A stretch of 11,176 nucleotides of DNA, from positions 1-11,176 of the forward strand of contig JBDLKA010000112.1 in assembly GCA_039714075.1 (NCBI GenBank), in the 5' to 3' direction. The position numbers were made by a program, and so were the translations under genes. This DNA comes from Candidatus Krumholzibacteriota bacterium (lineage in GTDB: Bacteria; Krumholzibacteriota; Krumholzibacteriia; LZORAL124-64-63). Positions 1 through 10,691 of this stretch are shown piece by piece (positions within the stretch are counted from its first letter, which is position 1; the number at the start of each line of letters is the position of its first letter). Under the pieces are notes generated by a model. It saw only the letters and a list, made by a program, of their open reading frames with translations. It did not search any database and was not told the origin of the DNA.

Positions 1-100
1 TTCGCCGCCGTAGCCATAGCTACGGCAAGAATTCGCAACGCCGAGCTCGGTTTGGCAAGGCGTGCATGACGCCGGGAGGAGTTTTTCAACAGCCTGCTAG
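1..100. mobile_element. Right half of a putative palindromic MITE / IS-derived repeat, truncated by the window start
   Basis: Ends in GAGTTTTTCAACAGCCTGCTAG (79-100), which I recognise as resembling the terminal inverted repeat (rev. comp. CTAGCAGGCTGTTGAAAAA) of IS1182/IS5-type non-autonomous elements. Perfect 8-bp hairpin GCCGTAGC-cata-GCTACGGC at 7-26; TTC (1-3) can extend the pairing with GAA (29-31). No transposase visible. Confidence 0.55.
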
Positions 101-112
101 ATCAGCCCCATG

Positions 113-149
113 TGAAAACGCCCCCCGGGAAATTCCCGGGGGGCGTTTC
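113..149 (-). terminator. Intrinsic terminator downstream of the first CBM20 gene
   Basis: Perfect 16-bp inverted repeat AAACGCCCCCCGGGAA-A-TTCCCGGGGGGCGTTT (116-148), about 38 nt past the stop at 187. Short T run on the minus strand. Confidence 0.8.
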
Positions 150-186
150 GCGACCGCCGGAGCGGCCGTGAGCTGATTAAGGACAA

Positions 187-1338
187 CTACCGGTACATAC
201 CCTTGATGGTACCCCAGGCAGCCTCTTCGACCGCAACCGGAGCACACACGCCGGGACCGTCTTCCCACACGTGGGTCACGGTGGTCTCGGGAGCCAGGGT
301 GTTGTCCAGGACGATGACCTTGTTGGCGCCGCCTTCCCAGGTGTTGCAGTCGTCCTTCTTGAACTTGTACTCGATGGTCAGGGGGATGGGCCTGCCGGCC
401 TCGAACACGACGCAGGTCTGGTAGAGGCCCGCCCCGATAAGATCGGCCGGGATGCCGGCGCCCCAGTTGTCCAGTTCGGGGATGCCGCCGACGGTGCAGA
501 CGCCGCCGGTATTATCCACGCCGTCCAGGCAGACCTGGAAGCAGATAACCTTGTCTTCCTCGAGAGTGTTGCCCAGGCCACAGGTGATGGGCGCGAATTC
601 CCAGCTGTCGGGCGCCAGTTCCACCAGGGTGGTGCCGTCCGTGGGCAGGGTCACCAGCCGGTTGGCGGTGCCTTCCCAGGTCGCGCAGGCGTCCTTCTTG
701 TACTTGTATTCGAAGCTGGGGTTGCCGCCGGCGGCGAAGACCACATCGACGGTGAACAGTTCGGGATCACCGGGAGATCCGATCATGTTCACGCCGGTGC
801 CCCAGCTACCGATCTCCGCGGCCGAACCGATCACACAGGGAACGGGCGTCGTGGCCGTGCCGCTCATGCACAGAGTGAAACGCACGATGATGTCGTTGGG
901 CAGCACGTCGATGACGTTGTAGCGGAACGGAGGAACATTGCCGGCCTGGTCCGCGGCCACCTCGAAGTCGGTACCGTCGGTGGCGTCGCTGAAAATGACC
1001 GTCACATCCACCCAGGCGGCGCCCACCAGGGCAGCCTGGGGTACCTGGGCCGTGTATTCGTCGTTGGCGCCCACGTCTCCCAGGTAGGTCATCGGAGCGT
1101 TGGCCTGGGCCGCGATGTCAGTGGTGTAGTAGAGGACGGCCGAGATGTCGGCACCCTGTCCCCCGGGATCCGTGATCCCGTTCTTGTAAACCTGGGCATA
1201 CACATCCACCGGTCCGGTAGGCGTGACGTTCTGTCCATGGTTCGGCCAGACATTGCCCGCCCAGTCGATGAGCGCGAAGGCGTTGCCGGCTACGCCCAGA
1301 AGCATGACGCAGACGGTCAGCGTGAGCAGTTTCTTCAT
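187..1338 (-). CDS. Secreted non-catalytic starch-binding protein (amylopullulanase-type accessory module + 2x CBM20 + C-terminal WGTIKGMYR tail), 383 aa
   Basis: Start moved from 1683 to ATG 1338: SD GGGAGGG upstream, Sec signal MKKLLTLTVCVMLLGVAGNAFA, and the same start as the paralogue. CBM20 signatures twice: VIGS-x-EIGSW...FEYKY...TWEG-x-NR and VGG-x-ELDNW...IEYKF...TWEG-x-NK. No GH catalytic motifs. Confidence 0.85.
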   Translation of the reverse strand: MKKLLTLTVCVMLLGVAGNAFALIDWAGNVWPNHGQNVTPTGPVDVYAQVYKNGITDPGGQGADISAVLYYTTDIAAQANAPMTYLGDVGANDEYTAQVPQAALVGAAWVDVTVIFSDATDGTDFEVAADQAGNVPPFRYNVIDVLPNDIIVRFTLCMSGTATTPVPCVIGSAAEIGSWGTGVNMIGSPGDPELFTVDVVFAAGGNPSFEYKYKKDACATWEGTANRLVTLPTDGTTLVELAPDSWEFAPITCGLGNTLEEDKVICFQVCLDGVDNTGGVCTVGGIPELDNWGAGIPADLIGAGLYQTCVVFEAGRPIPLTIEYKFKKDDCNTWEGGANKVIVLDNTLAPETTVTHVWEDGPGVCAPVAVEEAAWGTIKGMYR

Positions 1339-1487
1339 GATACCCTCCCCAGGGGGTGATGGCCCGCTAACCAGGCCGCTTGCAGATGCAGGCATATCTG
1401 GAAGCATCCAGGCATGCCGGGCGGCCCGTATCGTTGAAAACCCTGAAAAGGGAGCGATTTGAGCCGAAAATCCAATTGTCGAACGCA

Positions 1488-1535
1488 ATTTTACCATAAA
1501 AACGGGATTTTTGGTGTACTTTTTGGATTTTTGAT
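1488..1535 (-). promoter_or_regulatory. Putative extended -10 promoter with upstream A-tracts for the 187-1338 gene
   Basis: Minus strand TGgTAAAAT at 1496-1488, preceded by AT-rich sequence with several A5 tracts (CAAAAATCCAAAAAGTACACCAAAAAT) in a GC-rich genome. Confidence 0.45.
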
Positions 1536-1570
1536 GAAATACCGCCCTCCAGACGACGCTGGAGGGCGGT
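1534..1570 (-). terminator. Stem-loop after the second CBM20 gene (weak terminator or mRNA-stabilising hairpin)
   Basis: Perfect 12-bp inverted repeat ACCGCCCTCCAG-acgacg-CTGGAGGGCGGT (1541-1570), 27 nt after the stop at 1598, followed on the minus strand by only ATTTCAT. Confidence 0.65.
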
Positions 1571-1597
1571 GATCGGAAGAAGGCCCGTAACCGAAAT

Positions 1598-2728
1598 CTA
1601 CCTGTACATACCCTTGAGGGTGCCCCAGGCGGCTTCTTCAACCGTAACGGGATCACAGGCGCCCGGACCGTCGTCCCAGGCATGGGTCAGGGTCTGGGTC
1701 GATGGCGACGAGTTGTCGATGGTCAGCAACCTGTTGGGAACACCTTCCCAGGTCGCGCAATCATCCTTCTTGAACTTGTACTCGATGTTGATGGGTATCG
1801 GCGAACCGGCGGGCAAAATGATGCAGGCCTGGTACAGGTCCGCGGCGATTTCGACCGCCGGGGTACCGTAACCCCAGTTGTCCAGTTCGGGAATGTTTCC
1901 CACGGCGCAGACGCCGCCGCTGGTGCCGACCCCGGCCAGACAGACCTGGAAGCAGACTTCCTTGTCCTCGGCCAGGACGTCGCCCAGACCGCAGCCCAGC
2001 GGCTGGTTGTTCCAGCTGTCCTCGGGCGCCGGGATGGGATAATAGGTCGTACCGTCGGTCGGCAGGGTCACGACCCGGTTGGGTACGCTTTCCCAGGTGG
2101 TACAGCCGTCCTTCTGGTACTTGTACTCGAAGGTGGGATTGCTGCCGGCCGGAATGATCACCGTGACACCGTACAAATCGCCGCTGCCGCCGTTGTCCAT
2201 GACCACTCCCGTGGTCCAGCTGCCCAGGGCCGGATCCGACCCGATGACGCAGACATCGCCGCTGGTGACCTCGCCACTCAGGCAAAGACGGAAGCCGACT
2301 TCCAGGTCGTTGGGCAGGACGTCGGTCACGTAGTACCGGACCGGGTTCACGCCGTAGGAAGTGGCGTCGGTCGCGTCGGTGAAGGTGACCGAGACATCCA
2401 CCCAGGCCGCGCCCACCAGGGCCGTCTGGGGTACCTGGGCGGTGTATTCGTCGTTGTTGCCGATGTCCGTGTTGTAGGTCATCGGCACGCTGACCAGGGA
2501 GCCGATGTCGGTCACGTAGGCCAGGACACCGGAAATATCGGCGCCTTGCCCGGGGCCGTCGGTGACGCCGGCCTTGTAGACCTGGGCGTAGACATCCACC
2601 GGTCCCGTGGGAATGACGTTGGCGCCGTCCGCCGGCCAGACGTTGCCGGCCCAGTCGATGACCGCGAACGCGCTTCCGGCGGCGGTCAGAACCAAAGTAC
2701 AAAGAGCGAGCGTGAGCAGTTTCTTCAT
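1598..2728 (-). CDS. Secreted non-catalytic starch-binding protein, paralogue of 187-1338 (accessory module + 2x CBM20 + WGTLKGMYR tail), 376 aa
   Basis: Start moved from 2821 to ATG 2728: SD GGGAG at 2739-2735 and signal peptide MKKLLTLALCTLVLTAAGSAFA. CBM20 motifs VIGS-x-ALGSW...FEYKY...TWE-x-PNR and VGN-x-ELDNW...IEYKF...TWEG-x-PNR. Colinear with the 187-1338 protein over its full length. Confidence 0.85.
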   Translation of the reverse strand: MKKLLTLALCTLVLTAAGSAFAVIDWAGNVWPADGANVIPTGPVDVYAQVYKAGVTDGPGQGADISGVLAYVTDIGSLVSVPMTYNTDIGNNDEYTAQVPQTALVGAAWVDVSVTFTDATDATSYGVNPVRYYVTDVLPNDLEVGFRLCLSGEVTSGDVCVIGSDPALGSWTTGVVMDNGGSGDLYGVTVIIPAGSNPTFEYKYQKDGCTTWESVPNRVVTLPTDGTTYYPIPAPEDSWNNQPLGCGLGDVLAEDKEVCFQVCLAGVGTSGGVCAVGNIPELDNWGYGTPAVEIAADLYQACIILPAGSPIPINIEYKFKKDDCATWEGVPNRLLTIDNSSPSTQTLTHAWDDGPGACDPVTVEEAAWGTLKGMYR

Positions 2729-2741
2729 GATGATCTCCCAC

Positions 2742-2775
2742 AAAAAAAGCCCGGGTGGAGATAGTCCACCCGGGC
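2742..2775 (-). terminator. Canonical intrinsic terminator between the GH13 gene and the second CBM20 gene
   Basis: 11-bp perfect stem GCCCGGGTGGA / TCCACCCGGGC (2749-2775) with a 5-nt loop, followed on the minus strand by T7 (2748-2742). Confidence 0.8.
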
Positions 2776-2842
2776 ACGCATCAGGGTTGATTACTACCAG
2801 TGGCATGATAGCACAAATCATCCCGTTTTTGTCTTATTTCGT

Positions 2843-5800
2843 CTAATTCAACAAAATCGCCCCGCTCATTCCGGGCAGGGTGATTTCCACGTCGCCGCCC
2901 CGCAGATCGATCTTTTCACCGGTGGCGAAGCTGCCGCCGGCAGCCCGGGGAAAGGCATCCGGGCCCACCTGGACCTCGAAGACCATCTCTGCGCCCGCCG
3001 CGGTCAGGTTCTGCAGGGATTCACTCGAAAGAGTCAGCGTCACCGGCGAGGGGCCCGCATTGAAAGCGCTCACAGCCAGCTTGCCGTCCAGTTCCCGTGC
3101 AAAGACATAACCCTTGCCCTGGGTGACCAGGGTGGTGAAACTGCCGCGGCTGAGCACCGGCGTATCTCGCCGCAGCCTCGTGATCTGGCCGTAGTAATCC
3201 CGCAGTTCCTTTTTCCGGGTGTCGCCCTCGTAGCGCCAGTCCATGGGCCGGCGGCAATCGGGATCCTTGCCCCCGGTCATGCCCACCTCGTCCCCGTACC
3301 AGATGTGCGGCATGCCCACGTAGGTCATGCTGAACATGGCGCCCAGCATCAGGCGGCGCACGTCGCCGGCGCTGGTCAGATAGCGGATGGTGTCGTGGCT
3401 GTCCATCAGGTTCATCATTACCGCCACGCTCTGGGGCGGATACTGGAAGCGTCCCGGGCTGAGGCGGGCGTCGAACGCGGCGGCATCGATATTGCCCTTG
3501 CCGAAGAAGTCCATGACCGGGTCGCGGAAGAATTTGTAGTTCATGGTCGAGTCGAAGCAGTTGGGATTGATCCAGCGCCCCGCGTTGCCCCACAGTTCGC
3601 CCACCAGCCAGACGTCTTCCTTGAGGGAGTCGCAGCGCTCGCGGAACAGCTTCCAGAACCAGAACGGCACCTCGTTGGGCACGTCCAGGCGGAAGCCGTC
3701 GATGTCGAATTCGCCCAGCCAGACGTCGGCCGTCTTCAGGCAGTAGTTGACCACGTCCATGTTCGGCGTGGCGTCTTCGATGTTGTCGATGTTGTTCTCG
3801 TCGGCGTTGCTGCGCACCAGGTCGAAGTTCAGGTTGGGATGCAGCCCGAAGCCCCACCAGCAGTCGTAGTAGTCGCTGGCGTTGAAATCGCGGGAGGACG
3901 GCAGGGGCCATTTGTGGAACTCGTACCAGTTGTAGTACTGGCTGCTGGGACCGTTGTCCACCGCGTCGCGGAAGGCGAAATGCCAGTTGCCCGTGTGGTT
4001 GAAGGCCATGTCCACCACCACGCGGATGCCGTGATCATGGCAGGCCTTCACAAAAGCCTTGAACTCCTCGCGATCACCGAAGTGGGGATCGACCTCGTGG
4101 TAGTCCACCGGATCGTACTTGTGGTTGCTCATGCCGGTGTTCAGGGGATTGAAGTAGATCACCGTGATGCCCAGGTCGTTCAGGTAATCCAGCTTCTGCT
4201 GGATGCCGGCCACATCGCCGCCGTAGAACGAGTAGTAGTCGGGCTTGCCGTCGGTGCGGTAGGGGCTGCGGACCAGACCCTTGACGTCGTACCAGTCCTC
4301 GATCAGATGGAAGTACTCCCCGTTGGTCTTGCCGCTTTCGGGCAGCTTGTTGGCTCCGACATACCAGGGCTCACTGAAATCGGGATCGTTGTCGGGATCG
4401 CCGTTGGCGAACCGTTCGGGGAAGATCTGGTAGATGATGCCTTCCTTGGCCCAGTCGGGCGTGAAGAAGGGCGGGAAATCCGCCGCGCGATAGACGAACG
4501 GCGCCGAGCCCTTGTCCGCCGTCATCCCCTTTGCGCCCAAGTACTCCGTGGTCTCCGCGTCACGGTAGGCGACGAAGTAGGACAAATCATCCGCGGCATC
4601 GCCCAGGGTCACGGTGGTGCGGTAGTACTGGAAGGAGGCGTCCTTTTCGACGGCATCCATCGCCACCGAGGTTTCCGCGCCGCCGCCGGCCTGGTAGATC
4701 AGGGTCACTTCTTCGACATCATTCAGATGGGCCTTGGCCGTCAGTGATATCTCGGTCGGGCTCAAGGGGTTGCAGGTCGAGTAGTCGAACACCGGCTCCA
4801 GGTCGTCGCTGTAGATCTTGCCGTCCCCCAGTTCGATTTCGATGGTGGCGAACGTGGCGTCCACCTTCAGGATCGAGTTCTGGCCGCCGAAGCCGTCGTC
4901 GGTGCTTTCGGGGTTGTTGGGATCCTGCTGCCAGTTGCCGTCGACGACGAACTTGTACTGGTAGGTTCCCTGGGCCAACAGCAGGGTGACGGTGTAGGTG
5001 CCGTCGCTGTCGGCGTCGGTCATGCGGGTCTTGGAATCGTTCCAGTCGTTGAAGGTGCCGGCCAGGAACACGTTGGCGACGCCCGAGATGACGGGCGTGT
5101 AGCGGAATTCCACCGAACGAAGTTCACCATCACCCGCGGGCGCCGCCGCTGCGGCGCCGGCCGCCGCCGCCCCACCCCCTGCCGTGGCCGCGTCCACCTT
5201 GTCCTTGCCCGCGGCCACATGGACGACGGAATTCTGACCGCCGAAGCCGTCGTCGGTCACGTTGGCGTTGGCGGGATCCTGGGTCCAGGTGCCGTCGGCG
5301 ACGAACTTGTAGGCGTAATCGCCCGGCGCCAGCTCGAGGGTCTTTGTCCAGACGCCGTCGGCATTGTCCATGAGGTCGGCGGAATCGCTCCAGCCGTTGA
5401 AATCTCCGGCCAGGTGGACCTGGGTGGCGCCCGGATCCTCGTACCGGAAGGTGACCTGGGCCTTGCCGCCGGTTGCCGGAGCTGCGGGAGCCGGGGTCGC
5501 CGCCGGGGCCGCGACTGCTGCGCCTGCTGCCGAGCCCGCAGCGGCCATTTCGTCCAAGTCAGCAGGCACTGTTACAACGGAATTATTTCCTCCGAACCCG
5601 TCCTCGGCAGTGTTCGCGTTGGCCGGATCCGCGGTCCAGGAACCATCGGCCACGAACTTGTACTGGTAGGTTCCCGGATCCAGATCCAGGATCAGAGTCC
5701 AGACCCCGTCCGCATTGATCATGGGGTTGGCGGAATCGCTCCAGCCGTTGAATTCACCAGCCAGATAAACGGCCCCAGCTCCCGGAGCTTCGTGCTGAAA

Positions 5801-5884
5801 AGTTACCTTGGCGGCCTGGGCGGGCAATCCGGCCACAAACAACATCAGCATCGTGGCAAAGAATACGGTAGCTGACTTTTTCAT
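2843..5884 (-). CDS. Secreted multimodular GH13 alpha-amylase-family enzyme (neopullulanase/cyclomaltodextrinase/amylopullulanase-like) with 3x CBM48/AMPK-beta-like modules, 1013 aa
   Basis: SD GAGG and Sec signal ending AQA. Three repeats of V-x-F...V-x-LAG-x-FN-x-W...G-x-Y-x-YKFV-x-DG-x-W-x-x-DP-x-N...DGFGG-x-NS with Ala/Pro linkers. GH13 regions: PDWAKEGIIYQIFPERFANGD, FYGGD, SNHKYD, DMAFNH (I), HPNLN (V), GFRLDVPNE (II, Asp nucleophile), GELW (III), NLMDSHD (IV), YGDEVGM-x-GGKDPDCRRPM. Confidence 0.93.
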   Translation of the reverse strand: MKKSATVFFATMLMLFVAGLPAQAAKVTFQHEAPGAGAVYLAGEFNGWSDSANPMINADGVWTLILDLDPGTYQYKFVADGSWTADPANANTAEDGFGGNNSVVTVPADLDEMAAAGSAAGAAVAAPAATPAPAAPATGGKAQVTFRYEDPGATQVHLAGDFNGWSDSADLMDNADGVWTKTLELAPGDYAYKFVADGTWTQDPANANVTDDGFGGQNSVVHVAAGKDKVDAATAGGGAAAAGAAAAAPAGDGELRSVEFRYTPVISGVANVFLAGTFNDWNDSKTRMTDADSDGTYTVTLLLAQGTYQYKFVVDGNWQQDPNNPESTDDGFGGQNSILKVDATFATIEIELGDGKIYSDDLEPVFDYSTCNPLSPTEISLTAKAHLNDVEEVTLIYQAGGGAETSVAMDAVEKDASFQYYRTTVTLGDAADDLSYFVAYRDAETTEYLGAKGMTADKGSAPFVYRAADFPPFFTPDWAKEGIIYQIFPERFANGDPDNDPDFSEPWYVGANKLPESGKTNGEYFHLIEDWYDVKGLVRSPYRTDGKPDYYSFYGGDVAGIQQKLDYLNDLGITVIYFNPLNTGMSNHKYDPVDYHEVDPHFGDREEFKAFVKACHDHGIRVVVDMAFNHTGNWHFAFRDAVDNGPSSQYYNWYEFHKWPLPSSRDFNASDYYDCWWGFGLHPNLNFDLVRSNADENNIDNIEDATPNMDVVNYCLKTADVWLGEFDIDGFRLDVPNEVPFWFWKLFRERCDSLKEDVWLVGELWGNAGRWINPNCFDSTMNYKFFRDPVMDFFGKGNIDAAAFDARLSPGRFQYPPQSVAVMMNLMDSHDTIRYLTSAGDVRRLMLGAMFSMTYVGMPHIWYGDEVGMTGGKDPDCRRPMDWRYEGDTRKKELRDYYGQITRLRRDTPVLSRGSFTTLVTQGKGYVFARELDGKLAVSAFNAGPSPVTLTLSSESLQNLTAAGAEMVFEVQVGPDAFPRAAGGSFATGEKIDLRGGDVEITLPGMSGAILLN
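4860..5812 (-). repeat. Intragenic triplication of the CBM48-like module
   Basis: Shared DNA such as CGGAATCGCTCCAGCCGTTGAA near 5380 and 5731, and CCGCCGAAGCCGTCGTCGGT near 4884 and 5238. Units lie at about 5565-5810, 5215-5460 and 4860-5120. Confidence 0.85.
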
Positions 5885-6119
5885 TAAAGAACCTCACTTG
5901 CGCCAGGCAGGTTTATTCCCGGCCGGTCAGGACATCCCGGATCACCCATTTATTTTTGGAACCCAGTACACTAACAAAGCTCAGGTGACATTAAAAGGGG
6001 GTTAATTTGAGGAAAATTGCCCCAATTTCCGAAAACCCACCAAATGTGTTAATATTATAGAAGTCATACCATTCAAAGACGTTCCGATTATGAGCAACCG
6101 CCGTCCCCTGGAGTTATTC
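5885..6119. promoter_or_regulatory. AT-rich divergent promoter region between the two GH13 genes
   Basis: Divergent gene starts and a drop in GC. TGtTAATAT extended -10-like element at about 6047-6055 (+). Inverted repeat AAATTG-ccc-CAATTT at 6014-6028. Confidence 0.55.
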
Positions 6120-8018
6120 ATGGACCGCATCCGACCCGCTTTTTCCCGCTCTTTTCTTCTGTGGATCCTGTTTACCCTGTGCCTGTCACTGGGACTGCTG
6201 GCCGTGGGCGGCTGTTCCGAGCAGAGCGCCCTGCTGGATCCTGCCGAGCGGGCCGGAGTATCGGACGGCAAAGCCCATACGGACACCTTCACGCTGCTTG
6301 CCTACGACCTGGATTCCGTTCACCTGGCCGGCTCGTTCAACGGCTGGGTCGACAACGATCCCGCCTGGGAACTGACCCTGCAGCCGGACGGCTACTCCTG
6401 GCGCCTGATCGCCCAGGTTCCCGACGGCATGATCACCTACAAGTTCGTCCTGAGGATCGGCGCCCAGATGGAATGGCTGACCGATCCCGCGGCGGTCGAG
6501 GTCACTCCGGACGGCTTTCACAGCAGTCCCGCCTACTGGAATTCCCAGCGCGGCCGCCAGATCGTGACCCCGGACCCACTGCCCGCGCCCATCGACCGGA
6601 CCAGACTGGTGATCTACGAAGTCAACCTCAACGACTTCAGCGCCACGGGCACCTTCGCCGGCGCGACGGCCAACCTGACCGCCCTGGCTGATCTGGCCGA
6701 CCTGGGCGTCAACGCCATCGAACTGATGCCGGTGACCGCGCCCTCGTACAACGGCTGGGGGTACGATCCGGTCCTGCAGTACGCGCCCAACCCGTTCTTC
6801 GGCTGGCCGACCACCTTCGCCGGCCTGGTGGACGCCGCCCACGACCTCGGCATGGCCGTCATCCTGGACTCGGTGATCAACCACATGTCCGGCAGCGCGC
6901 CGCTGCGGCAGCTGGACGATTTCACCGGCACCAACCACTTCACAACCACCGAGGCCAATCCCTGGGGCCTGGTCGAACTCAACTGGACCGACCCCGCCCT
7001 TAAGGAGCATATCCTGGGCTCCCTGTGCCATTGGGTCGATACTTACAAGGTGGACGGTTTCCGTTTCGATTACATCGGCGGCGAGCCCTACTCGACCTGG
7101 GTTTGGGTAAAAGACCAGCTGAGGGCCAAGTATCCCGATCTTCTTTTGATCGCCGAGGATTTCAACTATCCCGCCAACTCGATCACCTACGGCTTCGACG
7201 CCCAGTGGGGCGGCAACCACACCGACGGCTGGGGCGGCGGCGGCAACAACTTCAACCAGGTCATGATCACGGCCCTGACCCAGAACGGTTTCGCCTGGCG
7301 CGGGGAACTTGTGCCCTCGGTGGGCGCCTGGGGTATTGCCTACAACAACATGTGGGCCGTGGCCAACGTGATTTCCGGCAACAGCAACTACGCCGGCGCG
7401 GCCCCTGGCGACGGGTTCAGCGACGTTAAATTCCTCGAGAGCCACGACGAGAACCGGGTCGCCTGGTCGGTGGACAACATCGGGTCGGTCGATGCGCAGA
7501 CCATCGGCGGGATACGGAAGGCCCATCTGGGAGCGGTCGTCTCCCTGACCAGCGTCGGCATTCCCATGATCTACAACGGGCAGGAGATCGGCAGCGACGA
7601 ATACCGTCCGCAGGGGACTTCGACCTACAAGATCAACTGGAACGGCGGCGACGCCGGGGTGCGCCGCGCCTACAAGGCCCTGATCAACTTCCGCTTGAAC
7701 CATCCGGCCCTGAACACGGAAAACATCTTCTTCCATTGGCGGCCGGGAAATATCGATCAGGTGGAATACACCATGGTCTACTGGCGGGGATCGACCAATG
7801 TCGACAACCAGGCCGAAGTCGTGGTGGCCTGCAATTTCGATCACCTGGACCACACCCTGGACGTGCCGTTCCCCGCGACGGGGATCTGGGTCAAATACGA
7901 CGCGTTGGCCGGCAACATGGAGACGGTTTCCGTTCCCGGCCCGACCCGGACCATGATCATTCCGGCCTCGAGCGCCTTGATGTGGTTCAAGGAAGACGGG
8001 GTTACCGGAGTGCCCTGA
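6120..8018 (+). CDS. GH13 alpha-amylase-family lipoprotein with N-terminal CBM48-like domain (TreZ/branching-enzyme-like clade), 632 aa
   Basis: ATG 6120 preferred over 6090 because of SD GGAG at 6110-6113. Basic N-region, hydrophobic stretch, lipobox-like AVGG-C. CBM48-like VHLAGSFNGW...YKFV...DP. GH13 motifs LVIYE, LGVNAIELMPV, WGYDP, VILDSVINH, DGFRFD, IAED, FLESHDE, GIPMIYNGQE. Confidence 0.9.
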   Translation: MDRIRPAFSRSFLLWILFTLCLSLGLLAVGGCSEQSALLDPAERAGVSDGKAHTDTFTLLAYDLDSVHLAGSFNGWVDNDPAWELTLQPDGYSWRLIAQVPDGMITYKFVLRIGAQMEWLTDPAAVEVTPDGFHSSPAYWNSQRGRQIVTPDPLPAPIDRTRLVIYEVNLNDFSATGTFAGATANLTALADLADLGVNAIELMPVTAPSYNGWGYDPVLQYAPNPFFGWPTTFAGLVDAAHDLGMAVILDSVINHMSGSAPLRQLDDFTGTNHFTTTEANPWGLVELNWTDPALKEHILGSLCHWVDTYKVDGFRFDYIGGEPYSTWVWVKDQLRAKYPDLLLIAEDFNYPANSITYGFDAQWGGNHTDGWGGGGNNFNQVMITALTQNGFAWRGELVPSVGAWGIAYNNMWAVANVISGNSNYAGAAPGDGFSDVKFLESHDENRVAWSVDNIGSVDAQTIGGIRKAHLGAVVSLTSVGIPMIYNGQEIGSDEYRPQGTSTYKINWNGGDAGVRRAYKALINFRLNHPALNTENIFFHWRPGNIDQVEYTMVYWRGSTNVDNQAEVVVACNFDHLDHTLDVPFPATGIWVKYDALAGNMETVSVPGPTRTMIIPASSALMWFKEDGVTGVP

Positions 8019-8039: not shown

Positions 8040-9443
8040 TCAGCGCACGTATCCCAGGGAGCGCAGGCGTTTGCGTTCCTCTTCGCTCATCGGCTGGAGA
8101 TCCTTGAACTCGCGTCCCCAGGTCTCGACCTTGCCCTTTTCCCATTCCAGCAGCAGGGGCTGCATCTGTTGGACCTTGCCGTGGTCGGGATTGAAGAGGT
8201 CGCGCTTTTCCAGGGGATCGGCATCGCGGTCGAACAACATCCACCGGTCCTCGTCCAGGTCATGGATCAGTTTCCAGTTCTCCAGGCTGACCGCCGCCAG
8301 GAAGGCTTCTTTTTCGGCTGCTGGCGTGTCCTTTTCATCGTCGGGAGCCAGAAAACTGACCTCGGAAAACAGGGGTCTTTTCCACTTCCCGCTCGCGCCG
8401 TCCAGCAATTCCTTCAGGGATCTTCCGTCCCAGGAAGCATCCTGCGGGGGAGTGCGGGAAAGATCCATCAGGGTGGGCATGATGTCGTTCAGGGAAACCG
8501 GCTCGTCCACGACCCGGGGCTGCAGGCGTCCCGGCAGGCTGAAGACCATGGGGACGTGCAGCAGCGTGTCGTAGAGAAAATGGGTGTGGCCGATCCAGTC
8601 GTGTTCCATGAACTCCTCGCCGTGATCGGCGGTCAAAATCACCAGGGTGTTTTCTTTCAGGCCGAGGGTTTCCAGCTGCGCCAAAAGCTTGCCGATGAAT
8701 TTGTCGGTGTAGGAAATCTCCTCCCGGTAAAGCCCGCGCAAAAAGTCCACGTCCGCATCAACCATCTTGTGGCGGTTGTACCGGAGGCTGACGATGTCCC
8801 GGCTCCATTCATGGACCTGTCCCTGGTATCCGCTGGTCTGATCGAATTCCTCGTGATGCATATATTCACTGTGCGGATCGAAATAGTGCACGAACAGGAA
8901 AAACCGCTCGTCCTTCAACCGGCGCATTTCCATGATGGCATTCCTGGTGACTTCCTGGGAAGTCACCGCCCTGTGCCCGCCTACCGCATTGTCGTTGAAC
9001 CGCTCGAAACCCTGGCCAAAGCCCTGTTTGGTATTGATCAGGAAATGGGATATCACGCCTGAAGTCCTGAAACCCCGTTCGCCCAGGGCGCGGGCCAGCG
9101 TGAAACTGCTGTCCGGAAGGGTGTCCATCAGGTGCAGCACCTTGTTCCGGGAGGGAGTCTGCCCGGTAAACAGGGAAGCGACCGCCGGCTGGGTCCAGGG
9201 CGCCGGGGAATAGGCCCGGTTGAATTTGACCCCTTCCCGGGCCAGGGCGTCCATGTTCGGCGAGGTATCCAGACCCTCGCTCCAGGCGCCGACATGGCCG
9301 GCCCCCATGGTATCGACGACGATCAACAGAACGTTGACGTCTTCCAGGTCGAACGACCCCTCCTCCTGCCCTCCCCCGCAGCCGGACAAAAAAAGAGCGG
9401 CCAAAACCAGGTGCAGGATCAGAAAGTTGGGGGATTTTTTCAT
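8040..9443 (-). CDS. Sulfatase-like hydrolase/transferase lipoprotein (alkaline phosphatase superfamily), 467 aa
   Basis: Lipobox LSG-C. Motifs NVLLIVVDT, SPNMDALAREGVKF, SPAPWTQPAVASLFTG, FFLFVHYFDPH, ENTLVILTADHGEEF, LHVPMV, VSLNDIMPT, and C-terminal LRSLGY. Confidence 0.9.
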   Translation of the reverse strand: MKKSPNFLILHLVLAALFLSGCGGGQEEGSFDLEDVNVLLIVVDTMGAGHVGAWSEGLDTSPNMDALAREGVKFNRAYSPAPWTQPAVASLFTGQTPSRNKVLHLMDTLPDSSFTLARALGERGFRTSGVISHFLINTKQGFGQGFERFNDNAVGGHRAVTSQEVTRNAIMEMRRLKDERFFLFVHYFDPHSEYMHHEEFDQTSGYQGQVHEWSRDIVSLRYNRHKMVDADVDFLRGLYREEISYTDKFIGKLLAQLETLGLKENTLVILTADHGEEFMEHDWIGHTHFLYDTLLHVPMVFSLPGRLQPRVVDEPVSLNDIMPTLMDLSRTPPQDASWDGRSLKELLDGASGKWKRPLFSEVSFLAPDDEKDTPAAEKEAFLAAVSLENWKLIHDLDEDRWMLFDRDADPLEKRDLFNPDHGKVQQMQPLLLEWEKGKVETWGREFKDLQPMSEEERKRLRSLGYVR

Positions 9444-9590
9444 CTTCTTACCTTTTTGTTCGGCCCTGGGTCAGGTTTGCCGGTAACCGGAAATCCTTGG
9501 AAGTCGTTCGTGCCCTATGATAACCTTGCCCGGCGTTATGGGGAGGGAAATTTCCCCGTTACTTCGGGATTCGGCGAGTGGAGGCGCGCC

Positions 9591-10691
<1,101 letters not shown>

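Follow-up and report, generated by a model that had tools for sequence, protein, structure and literature searches.

Tandem exported double-CBM20 proteins without a catalytic domain beside GH13 genes in a Krumholzibacteriota bacterium

Introduction

Non-catalytic surface glycan-binding proteins are central to the competition for starch of Bacteroides and Ruminococcus and, to our knowledge, have been studied almost solely in gut bacteria. SusE and SusF of Bacteroides thetaiotaomicron, in the passages of the two papers that describe them, consist of an N-terminal immunoglobulin (Ig)-like domain and, behind it, starch-binding modules in tandem, two in SusE and three in SusF (PMC9112005, PMC4850273). 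A passage of the first of these papers presents Sas20 and Sas6 of Ruminococcus bromii as non-catalytic starch binders working with glycoside hydrolase family 13 (GH13) enzymes at the cell surface (PMC9112005). Cbm20A of the marine Saccharophagus degradans is described, in the relevant passage of PMC3124978, as a secreted protein of 71 kDa with one module of carbohydrate-binding module family 20 (CBM20) and no obvious catalytic domain. Here we analyse a stretch of 11,176 nucleotides (nt), hereafter the window, from Candidatus Krumholzibacteriota bacterium (assembly GCA_039714075.1, contig JBDLKA010000112.1; genome label G000, 92% complete), in which two adjacent genes, A (187-1338, minus strand) and B (1598-2728, minus strand), encode exported double-CBM20 proteins without a catalytic domain. 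Marine metagenomes are listed among the sequence runs that match positions 150-2900 of the window, and no RNA run is among those listed. Numbered labels beginning with L, G, P and C denote loci, genomes, proteins and contigs.

Like SusE and SusF, A and B are non-catalytic and are encoded by adjacent paralogous genes next to an amylase gene, within a starch locus (passages of PMC9112005 and PMC4850273). The layout, an Ig-like domain ahead of tandem starch modules, runs parallel, and a preliminary description of A and B as functional analogues of SusE/SusF built from different parts holds up as an analogy without family membership. Judged from the sequence, membership fails on every criterion tested, namely profile, lipobox and SusC/SusD partners. 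The modules of A and B are CBM20 and not X25, and the SusF_SusE profile (PF16411) has no match in either protein at E ≤ 0.1, its only match, on the neighbouring GH13 enzyme, being sub-threshold. In A and B the lipobox is absent, and the N-terminal lipid anchor is replaced by a C-terminal tail. None of the seven proteins encoded in the window matches SusC or SusD; the partners found in relatives are CBM48-bearing barrels outside any Pfam barrel family.

The Sas proteins share the partnership with GH13 enzymes at the cell surface and differ in docking through dockerin and cohesin and in carrying X25 and related modules, with no dockerin found by Pfam in A or B. Like Cbm20A, A and B are secreted CBM20 proteins without a catalytic domain; unlike Cbm20A, for which the description in the relevant passage reports neither a tail nor a comparable N-terminal module, they have two CBM20s, an N-terminal module and a tail (PMC3124978). 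Among the titles and abstract openings retrieved for Krumholzibacteriota and starch there was nothing on a double-CBM20 family, and the literature on non-catalytic CBM20 outer-membrane binders yielded one relevant passage, that of PMC3124978. Given the SusE/SusF analogy and a CBM20-only protein of S. degradans noted in 2011, this kind of protein is already known. What is new is the build: an uncatalogued N-terminal module, a duplicated CBM20, a short C-terminal tail and a locus free of SusC/SusD.

Results

Two intact paralogues with paired CBM20 modules

Both genes are open reading frames (ORFs) that start with MKKLL (at 1338 and 2728) and stop at 187-189 and 1598-1600, respectively. Gene A encodes 383 amino acids (aa) and gene B 376 aa, and the products align colinearly from end to end in BLASTP (239/385 identical, 62%, E 2e-169), in agreement with the preliminary description of two intact, full-length paralogues roughly 60% identical. 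Each protein consists of a signal peptide, an N-terminal accessory module (N-module), CBM20-1, CBM20-2 and a C-terminal tail, B differing by the loss of 8 residues in the conserved DQxGNxPP loop of the N-module. An alignment of 54 relatives served to model A with AlphaFold2 (mean predicted local distance difference test (pLDDT) score 88.9); the model consists of three domains rich in beta-strands and a terminal helix that is weakly predicted.

The Pfam profile CBM_20 (PF00686; cut-off 23.3 bits) is matched by both whole proteins (A, 39.6 bits; B, 61.3 bits in 2 stretches) and by three of the modules scanned individually: CBM20-1 of A (residues 148-254, 577..897; 29.2 bits), CBM20-1 of B (residues 140-248, 1985..2311; 42.1 bits) and CBM20-2 of B (residues 249-353, 1670..1984; 26.0 bits), all features of A and B being on the minus strand. 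CBM20-2 of A (residues 255-360, 259..576) reaches 17.1 bits when scanned alone. It is 39% identical to CBM20-1 of the same protein over 88 residues (E 3e-18) and matches the CBM20 of cyclodextrin glycosyltransferase (CGTase) in phmmer (E 0.0023), and its fold is supported by predicted secondary structure together with the sequence repeat. Superposition on solved CBM20s, done for CBM20-1 of A, gave a Z score of 12.3 on the Hypocrea glucoamylase module 2vn4 (root-mean-square deviation (rmsd) 2.2, 97 aligned residues, 30% identity) and of 11.8 on human STBD1 (8x8k).

Neither protein matches a catalytic family in Pfam or NCBIfam at E ≤ 0.1. A search for longer (fused) relatives, weak as evidence, returned six partial matches, none with a glycoside hydrolase domain. 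The N-module is an Ig-like beta-sandwich of only 126 aa, to be compared with the AA13 catalytic domain, which we take to span about 230 aa. It contains no invariant His, and the predicted mature N-terminus reads L/V-I-D-W-A-G; a histidine brace of the AA13 lytic polysaccharide monooxygenase type is therefore excluded. Profile scans and structure prediction agree on two CBM20s and no catalytic domain or fold, confirming the initial observation of a tandem pair of catalytic-domain-free, secreted double-CBM20 proteins.

Export is indicated by the N-termini, MKKLLTLTVCVMLLGVAGNAFA followed by LIDWAG in A and MKKLLTLALCTLVLTAAGSAFA followed by VIDWAG in B, which after MKKLL have a hydrophobic stretch and an A-F-A cleavage motif and resemble signal peptides of the signal peptidase I (SPase I) type, as judged from the sequence by eye and by a crude heuristic rule. 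The signal peptide of A covers residues 1-22 (1273..1338), with cleavage placed between AFA and L and a predicted helix at residues 2-17. No lipobox was found in A or B: an AxA-type motif occupies the cleavage site, and the Cys in the hydrophobic region of both proteins varies across the family. Neither protein has a transmembrane segment. Ten Cys are invariant in the 54-sequence family alignment, which fits an extracytoplasmic, disulfide-stabilised protein.

Starch-binding site 1 is invariant in both modules

Profile alignment of the family to the starch-binding domain of Aspergillus glucoamylase (1ac0; E 2.3e-11) places W179, K212, W221, E222 and N226 of CBM20-1 on W543, K578, W590, E591 and N595, which we take to form starch-binding site 1, a Trp/Trp platform complemented by Lys, Glu and Asn. 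In CBM20-2, W292, K325, W334, E335 and N339 align to the CGTase site. All ten of these residues are invariant in 54/54 aligned relatives, and in both fold and site-1 residues CBM20-1 of A matches the glucoamylase CBM20s (1ac0, 2vn4). Since site 1 is identical in A and B, the suggestion that the two copies prefer different ligands finds no support there.

The N-module and CBM20-1 also align as a pair with the Ig-like domain D and the CBM20 domain E of CGTase over about 170 residues (Z about 11.3), with an rmsd of about 12 that comes from domain orientation. In contrast to CGTase and glucoamylase, A and B have no catalytic domains A-C, carry a duplicated CBM20 and possess extra invariant Cys.

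An old duplication with both copies retained

A word-indexed search found 314 relatives of about 381 aa, of which 120 were listed; those with a name are called 'CBM20 domain-containing protein' and come from metagenome-assembled genomes of Krumholzibacteriota or Latescibacteria. The family is present in 57/151 sampled genomes of the phylum, mostly in one copy, and among these 151 tandem full-length pairs occur in G000 and G121 alone. Other families of the class (L037-L040, from G135, G007, G064 and G065) have a shorter form, with open frames of about 280-370 aa, that combines the N-module and the tail region with a single CBM20.

A quick maximum-likelihood tree was built from 90 rows, comprising A, B, 10 genome-locus proteins and 78 of the 120 listed homologues (P0001-P0060, then every third, minus rows shorter than 360 aa and P0031, which is A itself). 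In this tree, a 21-row clade that contains A (SH-aLRT 100) is sister (81) to a 16-row clade that contains B (99). The pair of G121, from another genus (contig C251; L035:7798-8943 and 9136-10287), is an independent duplication (SH-aLRT 100). The order GH13, B-type, A-type is also present on metagenome contigs L041 and L055; L059 has B then A and is cut inside B, L042 has GH13 then B-type and ends 94 nt after B, and the same-genus genome G106 has the A-type copy only. The sister clades, together with the B-then-A order on three diverged metagenome contigs, indicate that the duplication is old and that both copies were kept.

The junction between A and B is tiled by overlapping Logan contigs (short unitigs) from two runs of one study; with the GH13/B-type/A-type order recurring on other metagenome contigs, the tandem is not a one-off assembly artefact. 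Two further Logan contigs, one from each run and with a depth of about 5, fuse A to B and skip about 1.4 kb, with joints at window positions 1086/2558 and 1231/2634; their short sides measure 36 and 46 nt. Either strains with one recombinant copy or graph artefacts between the paralogues may account for them.

Pairwise NG86 dN/dS (omega) is 0.37 between A and B, 0.29 between A and its G106 counterpart, 0.32 between A and the A-type copy of L041 and 0.24-0.31 between B and three B-type orthologues, values that are rough given dS of 0.6-0.95. No pair contains a stop. The copies of G121 are 79% identical with an omega of 0.27. On the dN/dS comparison proposed for the paralogues, A and B both look to be under purifying selection. 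Their divergence is greatest in CBM20-1 (56% identity, omega about 0.5) and in the N-module, where the 8-residue deletion in B removes the otherwise nearly invariant D-Q-x-G-N loop.

A C-terminal tail recurs across the genome

About 20 residues follow CBM20-2 in both proteins (A, residues 363-383, 190..252, GVCAPVAVEEAAWGTIKGMYR-stop; B, residues 356-376, 1601..1663, GACDPVTVEEAAWGTLKGMYR-stop) and share the pattern ...C-x-P-V-x-V-E-E-A-A-W-G-T-[IL]-K-G-M-Y-R-stop. This tail has no match in Pfam or NCBIfam, and no other segment is as strongly constrained between A and B (omega 0.12). Six-frame translation of the genome gave 23,745 stop-to-stop segments with a length of 80 aa or more. Among them W-[GS]-x-[IVLM]-K-x-x-[YFW], the core of the motif, occurs 51 times; 49 of these occurrences lie within three residues of the stop, and a signal-peptide-like N-terminus was recognised by a crude rule in 41 of these 49 ORFs. 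Reversed and shuffled proteomes gave 2 matches each, 0 of them C-terminal. The class W-[GS]-x-[IVLM]-K-x-x-[YF]-R-stop is often preceded by P-V-x-x-E, and most of its carriers are proteins of about 200 aa with a signal peptide, encoded on many contigs; the motif is C-terminal on signal-peptide proteins of unrelated families within one genome. Among the 120 listed homologues in the CBM20 family itself, 88 have a tail that fits a strict pattern, and most of the remainder carry near variants or are truncated. The tail is apparently an uncatalogued sorting or anchoring tag, and the titles and abstract openings listed from the literature on the phylum and type IX secretion or sorting signals gave no description of it.

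Type IX secretion system (T9SS) cargo with a type-A C-terminal domain (CTD; PF18962 / FlgD_ig-like) likewise combines a signal peptide with a C-terminal address, which there is a folded domain of 70-80 residues as opposed to the tail of about 20. No type-A CTD (PF18962, PF13860, TIGR04183) matches A or B, in which merely about 20 residues are left after CBM20-2. In the distant relatives P0181 (32% identity, residues 2-227) and P0158 (34%, residues 1-260), a T9SS CTD (FlgD_ig / Por_Secre_tail) follows the shared core of N-module and CBM and replaces the tail; in A and B the tail seems to act as a substitute for such a domain. The genome encodes the T9SS translocon SprA (472 bits), four C25 peptidases and 148 FlgD_ig-type matches (139 over the cut-off); SprA, PorU-like Peptidase_C25 paralogues and FlgD_ig-type CTD proteins are spread over contigs C3, C19, C101, C2 and many others. 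The same genome thus encodes both tail proteins and classic CTD cargo.

The N-module belongs to a large extracellular domain family

The N-modules of A (residues 24-149, 892..1269) and B (residues 24-139, 2312..2659; aligned with the N-modules of the family) have no match in Pfam or NCBIfam. Folded by itself, the N-module of A gives a beta-sandwich with a pLDDT of 95.8. Foldseek against the PDB with this module alone found nothing at E ≤ 0.001, and the list for the whole model of A is dominated by CGTase and multi-Ig chains. The top VIA-align matches are N-domains of alpha-glucan enzymes, those of GlgE (Z 10.7), the cycloalternan-forming enzyme lmo2446 (Z 10.5) and the alkaline amylase Amy703 (Z 10.2), followed by generic FN3/Ig domains (Z about 9.8); a second structural comparison, with the N-domain of LmCAFE, gave Z 11.1 and rmsd 2.2. 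ESM Atlas returned Myxococcota clusters without a name (0.95, 0.94) and, as a weak lead, CBM_21 (0.77); we did not rely on these.

A profile of 28 N-modules, searched against 1.84 billion representative proteins, matched 923 of them at E ≤ 0.001, a number that falls to 359 at E ≤ 1e-10; the highest copy number, 28, is that of a protein of 4592 aa. From the 150 matches listed, 36 were scanned with Pfam: 19/36 end in a T9SS CTD (Por_Secre_tail and/or FlgD_ig), 6/36 carry starch modules (CBM20, CBM48/AMPK1_CBM, X25) and 0/36 carry a glycoside hydrolase domain. The module is common in long repetitive T9SS cargo with Big_5, PKD, TIG and LTD domains. This distribution and these domain partners indicate that the N-module is a member of an extracellular domain family that is large and uncatalogued. 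The N-D-E-Y and D-x-x-D motifs conserved in the family (proteins P0127-P0275 included) might bind metal.

GH13 genes and outer-membrane barrels flank the family

Directly upstream of B lies a GH13 gene (2843..5884, minus strand) for an enzyme of 1013 aa with three N-terminal CBM48/AMPK1_CBM modules (Pfam Alpha-amylase 2.7e-56; AMPK1_CBM in 3 stretches), and a second, TreZ/pullulanase-like GH13 of 642 aa follows on the plus strand (6090..8018). Within the genome, CBM20 is confined to genes A and B, the GH13 enzymes and barrels using CBM48-type modules. A GH13 orthologue adjoins the family gene in 6/20 genome loci (L021, L022, L028, L031, L033, L034) and in 8/27 metagenome loci, with the gene order seen here in L021, L028, L033 and L034 and part of it in L022 and L031. 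On the other flank, relatives have a small CBM48 protein, a CBM48-bearing barrel of 821-882 aa (two CBM48, C-terminal Phe), a protein of about 546 aa, a TraF_2-like protein of 298 aa and a Glucodextran_C surface protein of 1127 aa; the barrels in these loci match no Pfam barrel family and some carry CBM48. One relative's locus (L032) also contains solute-binding proteins.

Orthologues of this flank cluster lie here at the end of contig C22 (34380-42823), which stops 63 nt into the small CBM48 gene. As C22 ends in that gene and the contig of the window begins just downstream of A, they are probably adjacent, with a gap of a few hundred bases between them. The family is usually single-copy and set between two GH13 genes and a cluster of CBM48-bearing outer-membrane barrels.

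Beyond the GH13 genes come a sulfatase gene (8040-9443), a gene for a MalK/UgpC-type ABC ATPase and one for an RNase T-like exonuclease. The sulfatase, which lies between the second GH13 and the MalK-like gene, has the same position in the same-genus genome G106 and is absent there in L028 and L033; it looks like a lineage-specific insertion into the starch locus.

Each copy has a conserved promoter-like element

The spacers upstream of B (2729-2842) and A (1339-1597) were compared with those of L041, L042, L055, L059 and L021. A consensus sigma-70 scan of positions 1-3100 recovered no promoter and one of three hairpins; the elements given here were read from the sequence and rest on conservation across contigs. 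Before B, an extended -10-like element (TGTGCTATCAT, 2805..2815, minus strand) recurs as TGTGGTATCAT or TGTGTTATAAT in L041, L042 and L055. It is followed by a terminator-like site on the same strand, a GC-rich hairpin with a U-run (2749..2775; -24.7 kcal/mol, z -4.8) 13 nt upstream of the ATG of B. Its stem is kept in 4/4 contigs, with one pair changed on both sides and so fully compensated. It has the look of a terminator or attenuator and belongs either to the GH13 gene, as its terminator, or to B, as a hairpin of the 5' leader. An earlier impression that B has no promoter of its own came from a poor three-way alignment and was dropped, as four GH13-B intergenic regions share a TGTGnTATCAT-like element.

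After B, a terminator-like hairpin (1541..1570, minus strand; -25.3 kcal/mol, z -3.95) has homologues with changed stem bases after the GH13 gene of G106 and in L041, L055 and L059. An extended -10-like element before A (TGGTAAAAT, 1488..1496, minus strand) is conserved in G106, L041, L055 and L059, a TGTGGTAAAAT-like form being common to the diverged contigs. The whole B-A spacer, hairpin and TGGTAAAAT element included, is homologous to the GH13-A spacer of G106. A second small hairpin beside the ribosome-binding site is common to five A leaders, and A itself is followed by a terminator-like hairpin (115..149, minus strand; -33.2 kcal/mol, z -5.2). Each paralogue appears, from these comparisons, to have its own promoter-like element and structured leader, so that separate regulation of the copies, the other difference proposed between them, is possible.

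Discussion

Two starch-binding modules, no enzyme domain and neighbouring amylase genes make the capture of a starch-like sugar the most likely role of these proteins. More specifically, we consider it moderately probable that A and B are exported alpha-glucan capture proteins with two site-1 platforms, held by their tail at the outer membrane or passed through it, and serving the adjacent GH13 enzymes and CBM48-bearing barrels. What the analysis shows is the architecture, the conservation of the binding residues, the absence of a catalytic fold, the synteny, the occurrence of the tail throughout the genome and an old duplication of which both copies were retained. That A and B bind a ligand and lie at the surface, and what the tail does, we infer.

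After cleavage of the signal peptide, a disulfide-rich chain of three beta-sandwiches would be exposed outside the cytoplasm. Each CBM20 would bind alpha-1,4-glucan helices through its canonical site 1, two sites per chain adding avidity, and the Ig-like N-module could act as a spacer or as a further contact surface. The tail of about 20 residues would direct the protein across, or onto, the outer membrane, in the position where distant relatives have T9SS domains. A polymer such as starch, glycogen or an algal storage glucan would then be held at the cell surface for the secreted GH13s and the CBM48-bearing barrels. The marine origin suggests algal or cyanobacterial storage glucans as ligands.

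Several findings weigh against this interpretation. The family gene is not beside GH13 genes in at least 9/20 genome loci, and in L025 and L027 it adjoins a gene for an M24 peptidase. CBM20-2 of A is by itself under the Pfam cut-off (17.1 versus 23.3 bits), and the fold comparison covers CBM20-1 only. The matches of the N-module to enzymes of alpha-glucan metabolism exceed generic Ig/FN3 folds by just about 1 Z unit, and the tail has neither a transmembrane helix nor a known reader and is modelled with low confidence (pLDDT 55-63). Finally, site 2 is degenerate. Of its glucoamylase aromatics, which we take to be Y527, Y556 and W563, two are lost in A and B: the position of Y527 is Thr and that of Y556 is deleted, leaving just the position of W563 aromatic (F195 in A, Tyr in B; Y306 in module 2). 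Membership of CBM20 does not require site 2, which in glucoamylase is linked to granule disruption, and its degeneration makes glucoamylase-like disruption of raw starch or granules doubtful. The proposal that A and B act in stand-alone capture or disruption of starch is thus supported chiefly as regards capture, for which predicted export, two CBM20s, an invariant site 1 and the GH13 neighbours argue.

The alternative that survives best is that A and B are freely released and help to bind or loosen starch together with secreted GH13s away from the cell, the tail being an export signal that is removed. The SPase I-type signal peptide and the absence of a lipobox and of a transmembrane segment would suit such a role, as would the abstract of PMC10202324, in which T9SS cargo of other bacteria can be released as well as anchored. 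A non-catalytic binder shed by a free-living marine cell would, however, bring that cell no private benefit, and the pairing of these genes with CBM48-bearing outer-membrane barrels suggests capture at the cell. Loosening in particular sits poorly with a degenerate site 2, and we hold free release to be unlikely.

Periplasmic binding is less probable still. Here A and B would bind alpha-glucans or maltodextrins, pass oligosaccharides to an ABC transporter or buffer them, and the tail would be a motif for periplasmic interaction or retention. A Sec signal peptide alone delivers to the periplasm, the locus contains a MalK-like ATPase gene and ten invariant Cys fit any oxidising compartment, yet the C-termini of relatives that share the core are T9SS CTDs, domains for export across the outer membrane. 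CBM20 platforms, moreover, bind polymer helices rather than short sugars, and solute-binding proteins are already present in a relative's locus (L032). That A and B are adhesins or matrix proteins using CBM20-like folds for cell-cell or particle attachment to something other than alpha-glucan, in an incidental GH13 neighbourhood, we regard as very improbable: the N-module is indeed common in long adhesin-like T9SS cargo (Big_5, PKD, TIG, LTD) and about half of the genome loci have no adjacent GH13 genes, but the five site-1 residues are invariant in both modules of 54 sequences, the linkage to GH13 and CBM48 is repeated in several genera and in metagenomes, and 6/36 sampled N-module proteins pair it with starch modules, including CBM48 or X25.

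A more speculative extension of the capture role, to which we give little weight at present, is that the tail is a new sorting or docking signal that couples A and B to the barrels of the locus or to a PorU-like paralogue. A starch 'utilisome' resembling SusC/D/E/F/G would then be built from different parts, with A and B as non-equivalent subunits that differ in the N-module loop contacting the partner.

Should the reading of A and B as exported capture proteins for alpha-glucan hold, they would represent a third, independent build of non-catalytic starch capture, in an uncultured marine phylum. They would also provide a simple, soluble test case for two uncatalogued parts, the N-module family and the tail, which are those most worth following up. 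If the tail proves to be a genuine sorting signal, a destination could be predicted for many of the proteins that Krumholzibacteriota and neighbouring phyla export.

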